From a virus (Duplodnaviria > Heunggongvirae > Uroviricota > Caudoviricetes): a stretch of DNA of 5,688 bases. Made by a program: the position numbers and the translations under genes. This document shows, piece after piece, positions 1 to 5,688 of this stretch; positions within the stretch are counted from its first letter, which is position 1; every line of letters starts with the position of its first letter. Location of the stretch: positions 1 through 5,688 of IMG/VR virus record IMGVR_UViG_2681813269_000003; one strand, written 5' to 3'. The notes under the pieces are model-generated. The model was not told where the DNA came from. It made no database searches and worked only from the letters and a program-made list of their open reading frames with translations.

Positions 1-22
1 TCCTGTGCCGTTTTTCAGGTAT

Positions 23-44
23 AAAAAAACCCGCATAAAGCGGG
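23..44 (-). terminator. Rho-independent terminator downstream of Q (tR'-like)
   Basis: All-GC 5-bp stem cccgc (30-34) / gcggg (40-44) with 5-nt loop ataaa. On the minus strand it is followed directly by a run of 7 U (plus-strand A-run 23-29). It lies about 80 nt downstream of the Q stop codon at 124-126. Confidence 0.5.
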
Positions 45-123
45 CTCTTTCAAATGTCCATGTCTGCTATTCGCCTCGCGGTACAGCTTTGCGAAGCGTA
101 CAAGAATTGAAGCAGTTTTTACG

Positions 124-678
124 TCAAAAAGCAATAACTTTTTTCTCTATACCAAAAGCCATAACCATTGGTTTGTACAAAATAAATTCTGCCACCTTTA
201 GCCAATGCTCAATGCGTCTTTCACAGGTTCTTAAACTCCATTTCGGGTGTGCATCATTCAGCAGTTCAGCCATTTTGCGTTTGGTCATCCCCCGCCCCTC
301 ATACCGTTGCCGAAGGACGCTAATCAATCCTGGATGCTCTGCCAGCACCTCACTTATGACCCGATCAATACATAACGCCTCTGCATCAGTACAATGCGCC
401 AGCCAGCTCTTTTGCTTACCGTTAATCATATCCCGCAAAAAAGCCTCAAGTTCAGACTTGTTCAGACCTGCTTTTTTCATCCTCCGGAGCGCCTCGTTAA
501 TTGCCGTTTTTGTCAGCTTTTTAGAGGTCAACATCAGGTTAAACATATTCCCCGTCTTACCGCCACCAATATACGACCAGCGCCCCCACATACGTAGTTT
601 TCCCTGAATCCAGACACTTTCCAGCGTGGTGAGACGAAGGTGTTCTCCGCTTTTTCCTGTATTCGTTGGGTAAATCAT
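124..678 (-). CDS. Phage late-gene antitermination protein Q (Q82/QuuD-type, Phage_antitermQ-like)
   Basis: 184-aa ORF starting at the ATG at 676-678, preceded by SD GGAGGGA (revcomp of 685-691); the ATG overlaps the upstream gene's TGA as ATGA. N-terminal region carries a W-G-x-W motif (LRMWGRW) as I recall from QuuD-type Q proteins; C-terminus (MTKRKMAELLNDAHPKWSLRTCERRIEHWL) looks like a sigma region-4-type HTH. Position after the nin-like genes and before a terminator matches lambdoid Q. The track's longer 224-aa start at 798 is rejected because it overlaps the upstream gene and lacks an RBS. Confidence 0.6.
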   Translation of the reverse strand: MIYPTNTGKSGEHLRLTTLESVWIQGKLRMWGRWSYIGGGKTGNMFNLMLTSKKLTKTAINEALRRMKKAGLNKSELEAFLRDMINGKQKSWLAHCTDAEALCIDRVISEVLAEHPGLISVLRQRYEGRGMTKRKMAELLNDAHPKWSLRTCERRIEHWLKVAEFILYKPMVMAFGIEKKVIAF

Positions 679-965
679 AAATATCCCTCCTTTCTCCAGA
701 TTTCTTGTGTGCGAAAAACACCTTCTGCATGCATCAGGCGTAATTCTTCTTTGGTGTAATCGCTGGTTTTTACCCGCCCGTCGATTAAATCGTGGCACGA
801 GCTACAGGCAATCGCTGCCTGCATATCGTGTGGCTTTATCGCTGTTCCGCACGTTCCCGCCAGTCGGTAATGCGCCAGCACAGACGTTTCCGGATCGTGA
901 TTGCAGTAGCCAGGAATTCTGACGGTGCACATCTGCCCCCGCGCCGCTTTACGTAAATCCACCAT
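675..965 (-). CDS. DUF1364 family protein (YbcO-like putative nuclease, nin region)
   Basis: 96-aa ORF, ATG at 963-965 with SD GGAG about 10 nt upstream. Conserved pattern DLRKAARG..C.VRIPG.CN..PETSVLAH.RL.G.CG...KP.D..A.IACS.CHD.ID.R matches my recollection of E. coli DLP12 YbcO (also 96 aa). Its start overlaps the upstream stop (TAATG) and its stop overlaps the Q start (ATGA). Confidence 0.75.
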   Translation of the reverse strand: MVDLRKAARGQMCTVRIPGYCNHDPETSVLAHYRLAGTCGTAIKPHDMQAAIACSSCHDLIDGRVKTSDYTKEELRLMHAEGVFRTQEIWRKEGYL

Positions 966-1564
966 TACGCAAACTCCAGCAGCTGCGCGGCCACATTTTC
1001 GACTTGTTCCGGAGAGGAAAATTTACGGAACAGAATCCAGTTCCACAGCACATTCAGAACAGATTTATAAACCTGCTGAAACTCGGTTTCGTCCATATTC
1101 GCAAAAGCGATGGATTTTGCCCGACGCCCGCGGCTACCGTCCGGATAAAAATGTTCGGTGTAAAATCCAGCCTGAATGGTTACCCACTCGCGAAAAGCCT
1201 CAAACGACTTTAGCAATGCCGTATCCCGGGTTCTGCGTGTCGCAACTGTATTCAGATATTGCTCTGCGGCTTCGCTCAGAGCTGGCGTATGTTCCCGACC
1301 TACTGATTCGCACAGGTAATCAACGAAACCAGACAGCAGTTCTCGTTCGCGAGGCGTGATCGCCCCACCGACCGGAGTCCAGTAATCGAAACCCAGTTGC
1401 AGGAGTTTGAAAAAACGCTTGTGGAATGCGTAGTTACACACACGCTTAAAGTCTGCGTGTATCCACTCACCTATTTTGATTTGATGCAGAAAATCGCAAC
1501 TCTCCGGCGTCGCCGGGAGAAGTAATCCGGAAGAGGTTTGTTTGACCAGTTGTATATGTGCCAT
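965..1564 (-). CDS. Phage nin-region hypothetical protein (DUF1367-like, tentative)
   Basis: 199-aa ORF from the ATG at 1562-1564 (MAHIQLVKQ...), with SD GGAGA 6 nt upstream. The track's longer form begins at a TTG at 1604-1606 that overlaps the upstream stop and is not favoured. Translationally coupled to the downstream DUF1364 gene. Family name is from memory of gene neighbourhoods, not a verified match. Confidence 0.6.
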   Translation of the reverse strand: MAHIQLVKQTSSGLLLPATPESCDFLHQIKIGEWIHADFKRVCNYAFHKRFFKLLQLGFDYWTPVGGAITPRERELLSGFVDYLCESVGREHTPALSEAAEQYLNTVATRRTRDTALLKSFEAFREWVTIQAGFYTEHFYPDGSRGRRAKSIAFANMDETEFQQVYKSVLNVLWNWILFRKFSSPEQVENVAAQLLEFA

Positions 1565-1602
1565 CGGCTTTCTCCGGTGGCACGGTGTTACACAGCAGGA
1601 GT

Positions 1603-1890
1603 TCAATCCTGCTCAAGATTGTAGATGAGTTTATTCTTCAGCAAAAGCAGAAAACCAGCCTTAAAACCAATCTCTTTCAAAACCCGTAATGATGTGACAA
1701 ATTCGTCCTCACGCAAAATAAAACCGTCCGTCAGAAGTCCATTACAAAAATAAAATAACACAGCACCGCTCTTCCTTTGTTGAGATTGCAAACATCTAAT
1801 GCGGCAATGGCTGACAATCGCTCCATTCTCAACGCGCACAGCATAGAGGCCATTTTCACTAAAAATTTCACGCAATTCTTCGATTTTCAT
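1603..1890 (-). CDS. Hypothetical protein, 95 aa (AT-rich moron; positional equivalent of rem in the Qin prophage)
   Basis: ATG at 1888-1890 with SD GGAAGG 8-9 nt upstream; single clean ORF. Visibly AT-rich relative to flanking genes. Sits between hok and the nin-like genes, where K-12 Qin carries rem, but I cannot verify sequence homology. Confidence 0.5.
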   Translation of the reverse strand: MKIEELREIFSENGLYAVRVENGAIVSHCRIRCLQSQQRKSGAVLFYFCNGLLTDGFILREDEFVTSLRVLKEIGFKAGFLLLLKNKLIYNLEQD

Positions 1891-1971
1891 CTTCAGAATC
1901 CTTCCAGATAAATAGCTCTCCCCTGTTCGGGGTCCATCCCTCTTCTCCCTGCGCGCTACTTAAGTGAGTCG

Positions 1972-1999
1972 ATTCTATCTGCGAAGGTGCGCGAATCAA
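1972..1999 (-). promoter_or_regulatory. Putative sigma70 promoter for the 95-aa ORF and downstream nin/Q genes
   Basis: On the minus strand: -35 TTGATT (plus 1994-1999), 16-nt spacer, -10 TAGAAT (plus 1972-1977). The same hexamer pair occurs in the putative hok promoter. Confidence 0.3.
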
Positions 2000-2016
2000 A
2001 TTCACCGGAAATAAAC

Positions 2017-2064
2017 AACAAAAAACCCGCCGAAACGCTGAGAGATCACAGCGATGGGCGGGTT
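2017..2064 (-). terminator. Putative intrinsic terminator at the 3' end of the hok mRNA
   Basis: 8-bp stem 2023-2030 (aacccgcc) / 2057-2064 (ggcgggtt) followed on the minus strand by a U-rich run (plus A-run 2017-2024). The loop is large (26 nt), so this is only moderately convincing. An additional strong 8-bp GC hairpin lies at 2105-2130, immediately 3' of the hok stop. Confidence 0.4.
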
Positions 2065-2139
2065 AAGTGCGGGTGCGTTGAGGATGCCTGACACATCAGA
2101 GGTGGGCGGGGATGGGATCAGCTCCCCGCCCGGTCACTC

Positions 2140-2295
2140 TTACTTCCTGGATTCGTAGTCTACGAAGACAGCGACCTCCGTCTGGCCGGTTCGGATTCGT
2201 ACCTCACAGAGGTCTTTCCTCGTTACCAGTGCCGTCACTATGACGGTTAAACAGATGACGATCAGGGCGATTAACATCGCCTTTTGCTGCTTCAT
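2140..2295 (-). CDS. hokD: Hok-family type I toxin (HokD/RelF-like small membrane protein)
   Basis: 51-aa ORF MKQQKAMLIALIVICLTVIVTALVTRKDLCEVRIRTGQTEVAVFVDYESRK, matching my recollection of E. coli HokD/RelF except for the last few residues. ATG at 2293-2295 with SD AAGGAG 9 nt upstream. Confidence 0.85.
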   Translation of the reverse strand: MKQQKAMLIALIVICLTVIVTALVTRKDLCEVRIRTGQTEVAVFVDYESRK

Positions 2296-2352
2296 AGCCT
2301 GCTTCTCCTTGCCTTTCGGCATGTAAGAGGCTAACCTACATGTGCAAAGCAT
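2140..2352 (-). CDS. mok: Mok-like leader ORF (in-frame N-terminal extension of hok, modulator of killing)
   Basis: In-frame ATG at 2350-2352 with its own SD GAGG about 8 nt upstream gives a 70-aa product MLCTCRLASYMPKGKEKQAM + Hok. This resembles my recollection of K-12 MokC (ML.TCR...KEK.AMKQ..., 69 aa, in frame with HokC). Confidence 0.55.
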   Translation of the reverse strand: MLCTCRLASYMPKGKEKQAMKQQKAMLIALIVICLTVIVTALVTRKDLCEVRIRTGQTEVAVFVDYESRK

Positions 2353-2471
2353 GAAATTGGCCTCAGATTAATGTTAAGCGTCTTGCCGGACGCGTAATGT
2401 TAACTGGGGCTTTTCTCTATCTGCCTTTTGGTGTTCATGCCTGAAGCAGATAGCCTCAAGCACCCGCAGTC

Positions 2472-2501
2472 ATTCTACTTACCTCGCCAATATGAAATCA
2501 A
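2472..2501 (-). promoter_or_regulatory. Putative hok/mok mRNA promoter
   Basis: On the minus strand: -35 TTGATT (plus 2496-2501), 18-nt spacer, -10 TAGAAT (plus 2472-2477). The predicted start near 2466 coincides with the 5' element that is complementary to the mRNA 3' end (2454-2467 versus 2069-2083). Confidence 0.4.
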
Positions 2502-2522
2502 TCAGAAAGGTGCCCCATAAAA

Positions 2523-3209
2523 TCACTCCTTCTCTTCTTTACCGTAGTGGAGTTGACCAATTTTGATAAGAGGGCGTCCCTGAGATTTGCGGTGTAGATT
2601 GGTATCGCGCAGAGAATACACACAGCCACAATATTCCTGCTGATAGAATTTTTCGCGCTTGCTGATTTCAATCATACGGGACGAGCCGCCCTGCTTGCGC
2701 CAGTTATAATCCCAGTACACCATGCCCGGATAATGCGCGACGGCTCGCCGCCCACAGTCGTTAACCTGCTGCATATTTTTCCAGCGTGAAATGCCCAGTG
2801 AACTGCTGATCACACTGAAACCATTTTCAGCGGCGTACAGCGCTGTCCGCTCAAAACGCATGTCAAAACACATGGTGCAACGGATCCCTCGTTCGGGCTC
2901 CCATTCCATTCCTTTGGCTCGTTCAAACCAGTTGTCTGTGTCGTAATCAGCATCAATAAACGGCACGCCGTGTTGTTCAGCAAAGCGAATATTCTCATCC
3001 TTACGAATTAAATACTCTTTCTGAGGATGAATGTTCGGGTTGTAGAAAAAGATGGTGTAGTCGATTCCCGAGGCCTGAAGCGCCTCCATCACCTCACCGG
3101 AACATGGAGCACAGCAAGAGTGCAGTAGTAGTTTGTTTGCCCCGTTTGGGAGCTCCAATTTGGGCCGTTTGAAATCAGCAACTGTCATAAATATGTTTAT
3201 TGGGGTCAT
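2523..3209 (-). CDS. queH: QueH-like epoxyqueuosine reductase (DUF208 family)
   Basis: 228-aa ORF with the Cys-rich motifs I associate with QueH: [12 protein letters not shown] near the N-terminus, [11 protein letters not shown] centrally, and [12 protein letters not shown] near the C-terminus. Start codon is uncertain: ATG at 3207-3209 or the ATG at 3186-3188, neither with a good SD. Confidence 0.7.
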
Positions 3210-3356
3210 AAAAATATCAAAGAGTGTAGCATTAGAACGGGGCTATCGGAAACAGATGTGTGACTGCTCCCCGCCCTTTCGGGTGGTCTCCTGATGATTT
3301 GAGGGTGCAGAAATCCCTCCGGTTAAGGATTAAATTTTTAACAGTGCTAAATTTAA

Positions 3357-3770
3357 TTATTCAGTTCTGGATTTTGTCGCCCTGCGTATCCGCGCTTTCG
3401 CGTTACGCTCAATCTGTATCAGCTTTTCTATATTTCTCCGCCTTTCCTGTTCCTCCTGGCGCAATAGCCTTACATCATCTGCCAGTCTGGTTTCTCTTTT
3501 TGCCACAGAGAGCATCCAGTCAAACGGCTCCACAACCGCACCGCAGATTTTACAGCGGACCTGACGCTCTTTTTCGTCAACCCGTACAGAGGCGTGATGG
3601 CAATATGGTCTTTCCGATGGCTCATAAAGAAAATTAACCTGATTACGAGGGTCATCCTCTTTTACCGGAAATAAAACGATATTGCTTAACTCATCTTGGT
3701 GATGCTGCCAACTTACTGATTTAGTGTATGAGAATGCCAGCGGTAATTGAAGCCTGATAGCTAATTTCAT
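3357..3770 (-). CDS. Hypothetical phage protein with putative zinc ribbon (C-H-H ... C-x-x-C) and basic coiled-coil C-terminus
   Basis: 137-aa ORF with ATG at 3768-3770 immediately after the upstream stop (TGAATG) and a strong SD AGGAGG about 11 nt upstream. Contains YCHH...(15 aa)...CKICG, followed by a Glu/Arg-rich tail (LLRQEEQERRRNIEKLIQIERNAKARIRR). Confidence 0.55.
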   Translation of the reverse strand: MKLAIRLQLPLAFSYTKSVSWQHHQDELSNIVLFPVKEDDPRNQVNFLYEPSERPYCHHASVRVDEKERQVRCKICGAVVEPFDWMLSVAKRETRLADDVRLLRQEEQERRRNIEKLIQIERNAKARIRRATKSRTE

Positions 3771-4193
3771 TCACAGTATCGCCTCCTGAAAATTACCCTG
3801 ATAGAAAGCCAGTACACGCTGCATAGCTTCGCTCTTCCGGCACTCGCGACAGATTATATTCAGGCGCCTGTCGTAGCGGCGTATTTCTCCGTCAGGTAAT
3901 GACCAGATAAGGTCCGGATCAACAACAACCGGTTTCCTCACCTTTACTCTCGAGAGTTTTTTGCGGGCGCTTTGCCAGTCCTTGCGAGCCTGTTCAGACG
4001 GGAATAAGCCGTAGCCAGAATTATATACATCACCACTTGCGACCAGTTCTATGCATAAGCGACCGACAGACGCACGACTGATACCTGTTTCATCTGACAA
4101 CTGCCGAATCGTGACCCGACCGTCCTGATGCACGAGTTCCACAATTCGCGTCTTCAGTTCTTCCCGCTGTTCGGGAGTAAAAGGTTTCGCCAT
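3771..4193 (-). CDS. Hypothetical winged-helix (HTH) DNA-binding phage protein
   Basis: 140-aa ORF with ATG at 4191-4193 and SD GGAGGA (revcomp of 4197-4202). N-terminal segment IVELVHQDGRVTIRQLSDETGISRASVGRLCIELVASGDV has the pattern of a DeoR/MarR-like winged helix. Translationally coupled to the downstream zinc-ribbon ORF. Confidence 0.65.
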   Translation of the reverse strand: MAKPFTPEQREELKTRIVELVHQDGRVTIRQLSDETGISRASVGRLCIELVASGDVYNSGYGLFPSEQARKDWQSARKKLSRVKVRKPVVVDPDLIWSLPDGEIRRYDRRLNIICRECRKSEAMQRVLAFYQGNFQEAIL

Positions 4194-4207
4194 AAATCCT
4201 CCTGAAA

Positions 4208-4954
4208 CTACTTAACAACCCTCGAATGGCTAACATTCGGACGCCAGCTCTCCCAGTTAAAATTCACCCAGCGCCCGCCGTTCATGACCATGCGATCCAT
4301 CACCCGCTCGCCGAGCAATGTTTTCATCACCTCATAGTTCAGGTTTGTCAGCATCCCCACGCTGCGCATCGACGCTGTCCGGCGATCAACAATCTGGTGC
4401 AGCACCACCTGCTCGTTTTTCGTCTCGCGCTGAATGCCAATTTCATCAAGAACCAGCAGATCCACTTCGCACAGCTCCCGCAAAAATTTTTCGCCTGACT
4501 GCCCGTCGTCATAGCTGGCGTGCAGGGCGCTCATAACATCAGCCACGGTAACCACAATCACTGTCTGACCGTCTTTCAGCAGGCGATTCCCGATAGCTGC
4601 CGCTAAGTGATTCTTCCCGGTACCAGGTTTTCCGCTGAACGCAAAATTTGTACACCCGGTCATCAGTTCATCGGCGATGGATTTCGCCTGGCTTAACGCG
4701 TATCGCTGGCCGTCGTTCTGCACCTGGTAATTCGCAAACGAGCATTTACGGTGCAACGGCTGGATGCCTGAGCGATTCAGAATTTTTTCCACCCGCAACT
4801 GGCGATTCAGGCGGTTGATCTCCTCGCTACGTTTCTGGCCTTCAGCAAGTTGCCACTCGCGCCACTCCGCTACCGTTCTGAATGGGGCGGTTACATGTGG
4901 CGGGGTCAGTCGGCGGATGCGTTCCAGAACGCCGCCTGTCGCAATATTTTTCAT
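4208..4954 (-). CDS. DnaC-family replicative helicase loader (phage replication protein, AAA+ ATPase)
   Basis: 248-aa ORF collinear with E. coli DnaC as I recall it (for example NRSGI.PLH..CSF.NY and MLTN.N.E.M..LLGERVMDRM). Walker A FSGKPGTGKNHLAAAI and Walker B DLLVLDEIG are present. ATG at 4952-4954 with a G-rich SD. It diverges from host DnaC, so it is a prophage paralogue. Confidence 0.9.
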   Translation of the reverse strand: MKNIATGGVLERIRRLTPPHVTAPFRTVAEWREWQLAEGQKRSEEINRLNRQLRVEKILNRSGIQPLHRKCSFANYQVQNDGQRYALSQAKSIADELMTGCTNFAFSGKPGTGKNHLAAAIGNRLLKDGQTVIVVTVADVMSALHASYDDGQSGEKFLRELCEVDLLVLDEIGIQRETKNEQVVLHQIVDRRTASMRSVGMLTNLNYEVMKTLLGERVMDRMVMNGGRWVNFNWESWRPNVSHSRVVK

Positions 4955-4960
4955 GGTCCG

Positions 4961-5296
4961 TTACCCCCTGAAGCCTGGCGGGATCGCACTGTCCGGCAAC
5001 GAGACGGTGTTAACCTGTCGGAGCAACGTCTCAGGCCGAACACCTTTCGGCGCGAACAGGCCCTGGTATTCATTGGCGATGCTGTGTCGAATCACCTGCT
5101 CAGGTGTAAAACCCTGCTGACGGAATTTTTCCAGTTCCCGTATCGCCCCGTTAGCGCCCTGCTCCGTTCGAATCGGTTTTCGCAATGCCTGTCTGAACCG
5201 GACCCACTCATGCCAGAGTGTTTCCGGCAACCAATCGGGCAGCTCAATAGCCTCCGGCTCGAATTTTTTAGACGCTCGTTTTTGGCGAGGGGGAGA
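4961..5296 (-). CDS. DnaT-like primosomal protein C-terminal domain (3' segment of a frame-disrupted replication initiator gene)
   Basis: Open frame from the stop at 5297-5299 down to the TAA at 4961-4963. It ends ...RQVNTVSLPDSAIPPGFRG, matching the E. coli DnaT C-terminus (...NTVSEPDSQIPPGFRG) as I recall it; KKFEPEAIELPDW parallels DnaT KFAMYPDWQPDADF. There is no ATG or GTG in this frame before the TTG at 5228-5230, so translation probably continues from upstream segments. Lies immediately upstream of the dnaC-like gene, as in the host dnaT-dnaC operon. Confidence 0.6.
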   Translation of the reverse strand, partial: SPPRQKRASKKFEPEAIELPDWLPETLWHEWVRFRQALRKPIRTEQGANGAIRELEKFRQQGFTPEQVIRHSIANEYQGLFAPKGVRPETLLRQVNTVSLPDSAIPPGFRG

Positions 5297-5308
5297 TCAG
5301 TATTTAGA

Positions 5309-5347
5309 TCTTCCTCTTCCTCTTCCTCTTCCTCTTCCTCTTCCTCT
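5309..5347. repeat. Hexanucleotide tandem repeat (TCTTCC) x 6.5
   Basis: Directly visible: six full tcttcc units plus tct. On the minus strand one frame encodes 12 consecutive Glu (GAG/GAA alternating). Confidence 0.9.
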
Positions 5348-5417
5348 GGTAACGCTTTTTGATCCGTTTGTGTAACGCTGGCAGCGTTACCTTTTCGTTT
5401 CAGTTCGCGTATTTTTG

Positions 5418-5688
5418 TTACTCGCTCGTTTGTAACCGCCCGTTTTTTTTAGAGCTTTTTCCGTTATGACGTTCAAAGTTAGGTAGAGAAAGCCCTCCGT
5501 CATTTTCGACCAGCCATCCAACCTGAATTAACGCATCAGCAAAACCAGACATAAAAGTGATGCGATCTATTGCACTTTTTGTAACGCCGCGAGCGTTACA
5601 ATCTGCATTACCGTCTATCATTTGTTGATCCGCCCATGCCCAGAAGCGAATAACCTGAGGTAGCCTGAGTTTAACGGACACTCCTTCC
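5418..5688 (-). CDS. Replication initiator N-terminal segment (partial; 5' end probably beyond the window edge)
   Basis: Minus-strand frame open from the window edge to the TAA at 5418-5420 (...GVTKSAIDRITFMSGFADALIQVGWLVENDGGLSLPNFERHNGKSSKKNGRLQTSE). The GTG at 5679-5681 has GGAAGGA immediately adjacent with no spacer, so the true start is probably upstream of the window. It ends just after an A8 homopolymer at 5443-5450. Confidence 0.45.
   Translation of the reverse strand, partial: EGVSVKLRLPQVIRFWAWADQQMIDGNADCNARGVTKSAIDRITFMSGFADALIQVGWLVENDGGLSLPNFERHNGKSSKKNGRLQTSE

Follow-up and report, generated by a model that had tools for sequence, protein, structure and literature searches.

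A hexanucleotide repeat in an inactivated Rac-type replication-initiator gene, probably lengthened by neutral slippage after the gene had died

The stretch of DNA analysed here, hereafter the window, is 5,688 nucleotides long and comprises positions 1 to 5,688 of a Caudoviricetes record in IMG/VR (IMGVR_UViG_2681813269_000003). It carries a perfect (TCTTCC)6.5 array at positions 5309-5347, in a part where all genes are on the minus strand. Tandem Repeats Finder (TRF) called the array with a period of 6, 100% matches, no indels and a score of 78, and the raw letters agree, confirming the tract as described in the initial annotation. The TRF call takes in partial units at both ends; the glutamate codons proper, (GAGGAA)6 or 12 Glu codons in the ancestral ydaU-family frame according to sequence, TRF and alignment, occupy 5311-5346 on the minus strand, which reads CCA (GAG GAA)x6 GAT. 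The longest perfect period-6 run in the window measures 39 nt, against a mean of 12 and a maximum of 15 in 500 dinucleotide-preserving shuffles, and an analytic estimate puts the chance probability of a 39-nt run at approximately 1.5e-16.

The tract lies within the remnant of a replication-initiator gene of the YdaU family (4961-5656, minus strand, stop codon at 4961-4963), recognised by alignment, three-frame translation, PHROG matches and RefSeq name as a Rac-type prophage pseudogene extending over three frames. The remnant shows 96-97% DNA identity to a gene carried by 681 out of 5426 complete E. coli genomes, and on the grounds of whole-protein homology and synteny we assign 4961-5656 to the YdaU-family initiator module of Rac-type prophages. 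The neighbouring ydaV (4208-4954, minus strand), which starts 6 nt after the ydaU stop codon, is an intact homologue of DnaC/IstB-like AAA+ helicase loaders, as judged from synteny and from Pfam matches of its product to IstB_IS21 (1.1e-19) and Bac_DnaA (2.5e-8). This YdaV protein is identical to one encoded on HE616528.1, which we take to be Shigella sonnei 53G, and on several other chromosomes. Upstream of the initiator gene, relatives carry a ydaT/cro-like module; in the window that part is replaced by IS600.

Three lesions in the initiator gene were seen in alignments both with three intact E. coli genes and with a multi-locus panel of relatives. The first is the insertion sequence itself: the terminal 32 nt of IS600 (IS3 family; 5657-5688), identified by homology and by the junction, stand in place of the promoter and of the gene's initial ~102 nt (34 codons), and the ydaU homology ends at query position 33. 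In an independent complete chromosome, L133 (CP104423.1), the same junction runs on into a gene for a 385-aa transposase (HTH_Tnp_1+rve) within an element 99.8% identical to copies annotated as 'IS3-like element IS600 family transposase'. The identical junction is found in loci L035, L039, L091, L107, L133, L137, L139 and L140 as well as in the window, and therefore marks a single clade. The second lesion is an A8 homopolymer (5443-5450, minus strand), A6 in intact genes, which shifts the frame by +2 between N-terminal domain and linker; some relatives, e.g. L138, L055 and L100, have A9. This A-run is a second slippage-prone tract in the same pseudogene, and its Lys codon is AAA in every genus compared. 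The third lesion, again a frameshift, is a 10-bp deletion 8 codons downstream of the tract, the junction of which (5288-5294, minus strand) lies between two TCCCCCTAAA/TCCCCCT direct repeats; in alignments with intact genes the missing 10 bp are flanked by TCCCCCT(AAA) direct repeats.

The IS600 truncation, the +2 shift and the 10-bp deletion leave no intact open reading frame (ORF) for the initiator in the window, and because of these lesions the remnant of the N-terminal domain, the tract and the C-terminal domain stand in three different frames (1, 0 and 2, respectively, by three-frame translation, with the Glu frame set as 0). The Glu frame has no ATG, GTG or TTG upstream of the tract, the first start codon in its open stretch being a TTG at 5247, and the ORF list of the window holds no ATG-, GTG- or TTG-initiated ORF covering the tract on the coding strand. 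The initial annotation had called the tract poly-Glu-encoding, which is true of the ancestral frame and of intact homologues and fails for the window, where the Glu frame is without an upstream start and differs from the frames of both domain remnants. We also inspected the sequence for an internal translation start behind the Shine-Dalgarno-like GAGGA repeats and rejected it: downstream of the tract there is no start codon in frame.

On the plus strand, a TTG-initiated ORF of 170 aa (4850-5362) spans the tract and would read it as poly-Ser. That the tract belongs to a gene of this strand has practically nothing to recommend it: the ORF runs antisense to both ydaU and the beginning of ydaV, homology is confined to the minus strand, and the open frame, 196 codons here, measures only 43-96 codons in intact homologues and other genera. 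We rejected it as a gene since its open length is not conserved.

Draft assemblies can miscount repeats, and the copy number in the window might thus be a sequencing or assembly artefact. We regard this as most improbable. The tract is, at 39 nt, shorter than any read, two further loci (L100 and L106) also have 6 units, and the complete chromosome L133 carries the same 6-unit allele in an identical context with the same IS junction, which argues that the copy number in the window is no accident of assembly. The 4.4-kb overlap of L133 with the window is identical save for an IS-end segment and five substitutions clustered within 45 nt at 1298-1342, in a DUF1367-like ORF at 965-1606.

Intact genes of the family are located in Rac-like prophages between ydaT and ydaV, and RefSeq names their products 'hypothetical protein' or 'phage replication initiator YdaU family protein'. 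Upstream of the DnaC-like ydaV, they read the tract as poly-Glu. The intact protein of E. coli strain COL60J has 262 aa. An intact homologue matches PHROG 2509, 'replication initiation protein', at 3.9e-89, and its C-terminal half matches PHROG 6451, 'primosomal protein' (residues 118-262, 1.8e-39), and PHROG 678, 'replication initiation O-like'. Alignment, PHROG and RefSeq thus bear out the earlier proposals that the tract sits in a phage replication-initiator gene and is translated as poly-Glu in intact homologues. Searched against Pfam at thresholds as loose as E<=10, the intact initiator matched no family. The family is widespread, and no functional or origin study of it was found. A common variant in E. 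coli and Salmonella (P0011-P0058, 376-380 aa) carries an insertion of ~114 aa six codons after the Glu run (THPKPF...GRIDIVVTD...); that these homologues have a different C-terminus was ruled out by alignment, which shows the insertion.

In an AlphaFold2 model built with 18 homologues, two regions are confident (residues 11-96 and 161-235), and the segment between them (97-160), with pLDDT of 30-43, contains a predicted helix of basic character and, after it, the Glu run (138-143). When intact, the gene thus uses the tract to encode poly-Glu in what is predicted to be a disordered inter-domain linker. A Foldseek search of the model against the PDB gave nothing significant (best E 0.43); the top matches, to proteins containing winged helices, are only a hint. 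The initial annotation had placed the run in an acidic linker between the N-terminal and 'DnaT-like' domains: its position between two domains agrees with the AlphaFold2 model, and the likeness of the C-terminal part to DnaT proved weak. The NCBIfam DnaT model matches an intact homologue with 16.2 bits (E=0.006) over the last 19 residues only, corresponding to an IPPGFRG tail, and PDB chains of DnaT match at E=0.13-0.45. The tail, the weak C-terminal profile matches and the adjacent DnaC-like gene recall DnaT/DnaC, where dnaT is followed by dnaC in an operon; however, the matches are far below family thresholds (16 bits vs 201) and the N-terminal domain is unrelated to that of DnaT. Because of this weakness a 'DnaT-like domain' is a reasonable lead rather than a demonstrated membership.

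Copy numbers were compared across related prophages with a gapped-pattern scan of IMG/VR, which returned 104 loci with 81 intact and 17 broken genes. The intact genes have 2, 3 or 4 units (9, 59 and 13 loci, respectively; 73% have 3), whereas the broken ones span 2-7 units, and every allele of at least 5 units in the IMG/VR set is in a broken gene. Within this set the association of long alleles with broken genes gives a Fisher p of 9e-5, and the variance of unit number is 0.27 in intact and 2.3 in broken genes (Levene p=6e-6); these p-values overstate the association, because the loci derive from few lineages and are not phylogenetically independent. The long alleles behind this association trace to two lineages of Shigella type (A and B) and to a single strain of E. 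coli. Systematic sampling of the 681 E. coli genomes that have the gene yielded 28 full-length rows, of which 22 carry 3 units, 4 carry 4 and one carries 5. Five units occur in a few intact genes of E. coli, among them that of O55:H7 strain DEC5E, and proteins with 10 Glu exist (P0048 and P0053). At least 10 O157:H7 genomes and seven related chicken isolates (Z1323CEC) have 3 units throughout.

Alleles of 6-8 units were met only in broken genes, namely in the Shigella-type lineages and in one frameshifted E. coli gene; as BLAST splits the alignments of an 8-unit query with E. coli and does not sort them by tract length, E. coli alleles of 6-7 units may exist. The allele of the window was absent from the 5426 complete E. 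coli genomes searched, which, taken with the identity of its YdaV protein to that on HE616528.1, makes a genome of Shigella type the most likely source of the window. The longest allele found, 8 units (16 Glu), belongs to E. coli 2013C-4974 (L141; NZ_CP027587.1, 498-1315), the gene of which is annotated as frameshifted, one C having been lost from a C5 run 17 nt after the tract. In that strain the inactivating lesion adjoins the expanded tract, as does the 10-bp deletion of the window.

The lineage with the 10-bp deletion of the window displays 3, 4, 5, 6 and 7 units, combined with A8 or A9 runs, in flanks that differ by 0-2 substitutions per kb. Within the IS600-truncated clade of single origin, L035, L039, L091, L107, L137, L139 and L140 have 3 units, as against 6 in the window and in L133. 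Another lineage of pseudogenes comes from Shigella flexneri and has GTG as first codon, an 11-bp deletion and 2-5 units. As copy number differs between prophages, the tract is truly polymorphic. The expectation that gain or loss of units occurs and preserves the frame was correct, with alleles of 2-8 units found, and identical copy number in all related prophages, named beforehand as the result that would speak against it, is not what the comparison returned.

The alleles behave like those of an ordinary microsatellite: in intact genes the array is short and stable, and in broken ones it is longer and varies far more than point substitutions do. We propose that (GAGGAA)n is an in-frame hexanucleotide microsatellite that would change its length by replication slippage. 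In intact Rac-type prophages it would encode the conserved acidic run (LP-EEEE...-D) in the disordered linker of a two-domain YdaU-family initiator, which presumably works with the DnaC-like YdaV, and in functional genes it appears to be kept at 2-5 units and to be stable over clonal time scales. In the window, where the initiator has been inactivated three times over, the tract would be an untranslated relic, and its unusual length (6 units, with 3-7 in the same pseudogene lineage) would reflect unconstrained, length-dependent slippage after the death of the gene. We consider it likely that the tract of the window is a neutral, slippage-prone microsatellite which lengthened after the initiator gene had died, and that it is not a contingency switch; relaxed selection would then lie behind the long alleles of broken genes. 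Another possible explanation is that causality runs the other way, since the 10-bp deletion and the loss of one C both occurred within 30 nt of long tracts: an expanded tract might provoke errors nearby or be selected against.

The initial annotation had suggested a contingency tract, in which in-frame changes of length would tune an acidic linker, and with it the interactions of the replication protein, as an adaptive and rapidly reversible switch. Several of the observations above speak for such a switch: copy number is polymorphic (2-8 units), the run lies in a predicted disordered linker between two domains, and an acidic run is conserved in the family, so that its length could matter. The tract also shares with the contingency loci of Haemophilus and Neisseria perfect short tandem repeats in a coding region, with length changed by slippage. 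Unlike those loci, however, it has a unit that is a multiple of 3, a range of 2-8 units only and a common allele that is clonally stable, and it is linked with no surface or restriction function, in a gene that is inactive here. With a 6-nt unit no on/off switching of the frame is possible, and promoter switching likewise falls away, as a search of the tract and its surroundings in the intact gene gave no sigma-70-like site; an internal promoter made by the tract was rejected for that reason. The only terminator-like match is palindrome 3 (described below) on the antisense strand, within chance expectation.

A contingency locus should be a functional gene with a selectable phenotype; in the window the gene is a pseudogene and, being dead, offers the tract nothing to tune. 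Nor does the gene determine surface properties or interaction with the host. Clonal groups show no variation in their 3-unit allele, which is also the one found in 73% of intact genes, and variability is greatest where no protein can be made. The suggestion of a tract that tunes replication was thus not upheld, intact alleles being short and stable and the long, variable ones being confined to pseudogenes, and we hold it to be very unlikely. The tract is of low importance for the window itself, where a dead gene in a decayed prophage of Shigella type carries it as a drifting repeat. More generally, the locus provides a clean natural case of a coding microsatellite that is held short in the working gene and expands in the broken one.

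Neutral behaviour may hold for the dead copies only. In homologues down to 42-69% identity (Klebsiella, Salmonella, Citrobacter, Yersinia, Serratia, Erwinia, Pantoea, Mixta and Samsonia among them) an acidic run is kept after an invariant Leu-Pro, and many homologues from other genera also keep the alternation of GAG and GAA codons. The run falls in the gene's strongest patch of synonymous-site conservation, and this patch stops within the first repeat units. Identity at third positions is highest at codons 133-140 (0.93, against a gene mean of 0.58), and in columns of conserved amino acids codon identity is 0.88 at codons 127-142 and 0.60 elsewhere (Mann-Whitney p=5e-4). The 24-mer CAA AAA GCG TTA CCA GAG GAA GAG is nearly invariant at synonymous sites among proteins that are 42-69% identical; Leu136 is always encoded by the rare codon TTA, and Pro137 always by CCA. 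Since the acidic run and the GAG-GAA alternation are conserved across genera amid such strong synonymous-site conservation, the sequence in intact phages is not 'just a linker'.

The Ala-Leu-Pro codons (GCG TTA CCA) contain a GCGTTAC half-site (5349-5355, minus strand) that directly abuts the tract, and sequence comparison shows its synonymous positions to be invariant across genera. The motif recurs in three palindromes of 19-23 bp with the form GTAACGC-N(1-7)-GCGTTAC, at about nucleotides -40, +160 and +370 of the gene, with additional half-sites. Two of them were located by sequence comparison in the window: site 2, GTAACGC-TCGCG-GCGTTAC, in the coding region of the N-terminal domain (5581-5599), and site 3, GTAACGCTG-C-CAGCGTTAC (5372-5390), 44 nt upstream of the start of the tract in the direction of the gene. 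Site 1, which is non-coding and lies ~40 nt before the start codon, was lost in the window to the IS600 insertion. In locus L001 the palindromes are at 2865-2885, 3056-3078 and 3265-3283. The window has 6 copies of GCGTTAC against 0.61 expected, an approximately 10-fold enrichment reached in none of 200 shuffles, and L001 has 8 copies, 7 of them within 440 bp. Arms and positions of the palindromes are retained in at least nine enterobacterial genera, the majority of those compared (among them E. coli, Mixta, Erwinia, Yersinia, Serratia, Samsonia, Rahnella, Pantoea and Pectobacterium), and the non-coding copy upstream of the start codon is likewise conserved across genera. In the 45 nt following Leu-Pro the purine fraction is 0.60-0.93 (0.56-0.60 in the whole gene) and the AT fraction 0.53-0.73, less AT-rich than lambda (0.78), and the DNA encoding the linker has a strong A-skew.

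These features could indicate that the tract acts at the DNA level, as part of a lambda-like replication origin or operator inside the initiator gene. The palindromes would be candidate binding sites of the initiator, and the purine-rich (GAGGAA)n with the A/T-rich codons that follow would provide adjacent DNA that opens easily or serves as a spacer; on this view the Glu codons would partly be a by-product of a requirement of the DNA, and the number of units could affect the origin in intact phages. The enrichment of GCGTTAC in the window and in L001 fits this proposal, as do the conservation of three palindromes in position and arms across genera, including a copy outside the coding sequence, the near-invariance of synonymous sites in the 24-mer beside and into the tract with its third-position peak, and the purine-rich, AT-enriched and A-skewed DNA after Leu-Pro.

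Lambda has the same layout: four palindromic iterons at codons 117-145 of O are followed by a purine-rich (0.75) and AT-rich (0.78) stretch that encodes a charged linker. Like lambda O at ori-lambda, the present family has a two-domain initiator with a flexible charged linker (predicted here), initiator-type palindromes in linker-coding DNA with purine-rich and, less markedly than in lambda, A/T-rich DNA behind them, an N-terminal module of domain and sites that can be exchanged against different C-terminal modules, and a helicase-loader gene immediately downstream; several dyad-symmetric sites in or next to the initiator gene, as expected of an origin of the lambda type, are present. Unlike the four tandem iterons of lambda, however, the sites are dispersed at about -40, +160 and +370; no similarity to lambda O in sequence or fold was detected (no Pfam family, best Foldseek E=0.43), and the partner of the initiator is a DnaC/IstB-like AAA+ protein and not one of the lambda P kind. 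Lambda, for its part, is without a homopolymeric Glu run or microsatellite.

The Rac prophage of E. coli K-12 offers another comparison. The gene order ydaT-ydaU-ydaV-DUF1627 is the same, and so is the C-terminal domain ending in ...NTVSLPDSAIPPGFRG, whereas the K-12 YdaU has a different N-terminal domain and lacks both the Glu run and the GCGTTAC sites. RefSeq labels some K-12-type homologues 'DUF1376 domain-containing protein'. Nucleotide homology to the K-12 ydaU begins only after the tract and the 376-aa variant has its insertion after the tract, and therefore the palindromes, the N-terminal domain and the acidic run behave as one exchangeable module. That palindromes and Glu run are missing together from a YdaU with a different N-terminal domain also speaks for a role in an origin.

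Against such a role, the sites are ~200 bp apart and not in tandem. Intact genes tolerate 2, 3, 4 and 5 units, each unit shifting the downstream DNA by 0.57 helical turn, and because single steps of 6 bp are tolerated, no spacing of critical phase can cross the tract. Almost every codon of the run is for Glu, with no mixture of purine-rich codons such as those for Lys, Arg and Gly; in some genera Leu or Val codons stand within it (EEELEEE, EVEVELEEE), so that the acidity persists although the stretch of purines is broken; and slippage alone would preserve the GAG-GAA unit. The Rac prophage is described as having an active origin, oriJ (PMC3945230), and a plasmid study of oriJ is cited in PMC11014345. 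The literature found on ydaU, oriJ and the repeat contains no description of the tract or of an origin in this type of initiator, and nothing in it places an origin here. On balance we think it unlikely, though worth considering, that the tract is an element of an intragenic origin. In the window any such function would have been lost, because site 1 and the initiator are gone.

A stronger form of this idea, which we regard as doubtful, is that (GAGGAA)n together with the GCGTTAC half-site would be a working part of a lambda-like origin, doubly constrained as acidic linker and as purine-rich flank, with the number of units capping the function of origin or initiator. If there were such a cap, it would explain why alleles of at least 6 units were seen only in inactivated genes. 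The palindromes and the synonymous constraint amount to a testable prediction of where the origin lies in Rac-like prophages with this type of initiator.

Returning to neutral slippage as the preferred reading of the tract in the window, we compared it with repeats used for typing. The marker STTR6 has a repeat unit of 6 bp. It is located on the prophage Gifsy-1 of Salmonella Typhimurium (PMC3901673). Like STTR6, the tract is a short-unit repeat of a lambdoid prophage with a copy number that differs between close strains; unlike typing repeats of prophages, it has a narrow range of alleles except in the pseudogene lineages. The tract is thus a slippage-prone, in-frame prophage VNTR comparable to typing markers such as STTR6. 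With 3-7 units among near-identical flanks, it could serve as a fast typing marker itself; it is not among the repeats of the Shigella MLVA papers examined.

Some other features of the window were recorded. No Rfam family or tRNA was found near the tract, the only Rfam match being sok (RF01794, 117 bits) at 2290-2465, which together with a Hok-like ORF at 2140-2352 (minus strand) makes up a toxin-antitoxin locus of the hok/sok type. A homologue of QueH (epoxyqueuosine reductase, PF02677) is encoded at 2523-3209, in the late-early region of the prophage; its gene contains a 12-nt unit twice (TCAAAACACATG, 91% match) at 2851-2874, probably by chance. Finally, a 34-nt segment at 3698-3731 (GGTGATGCTGCCAACTTACTGATTTAGTGTATGA) stands in place of 36 nt of the otherwise identical L133. 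E. coli genomes contain this segment 67,198 times (median 9 per genome), and it is presumably the terminal inverted repeat of IS1, present here as a solo IS end within the ORF at 3357-3770.
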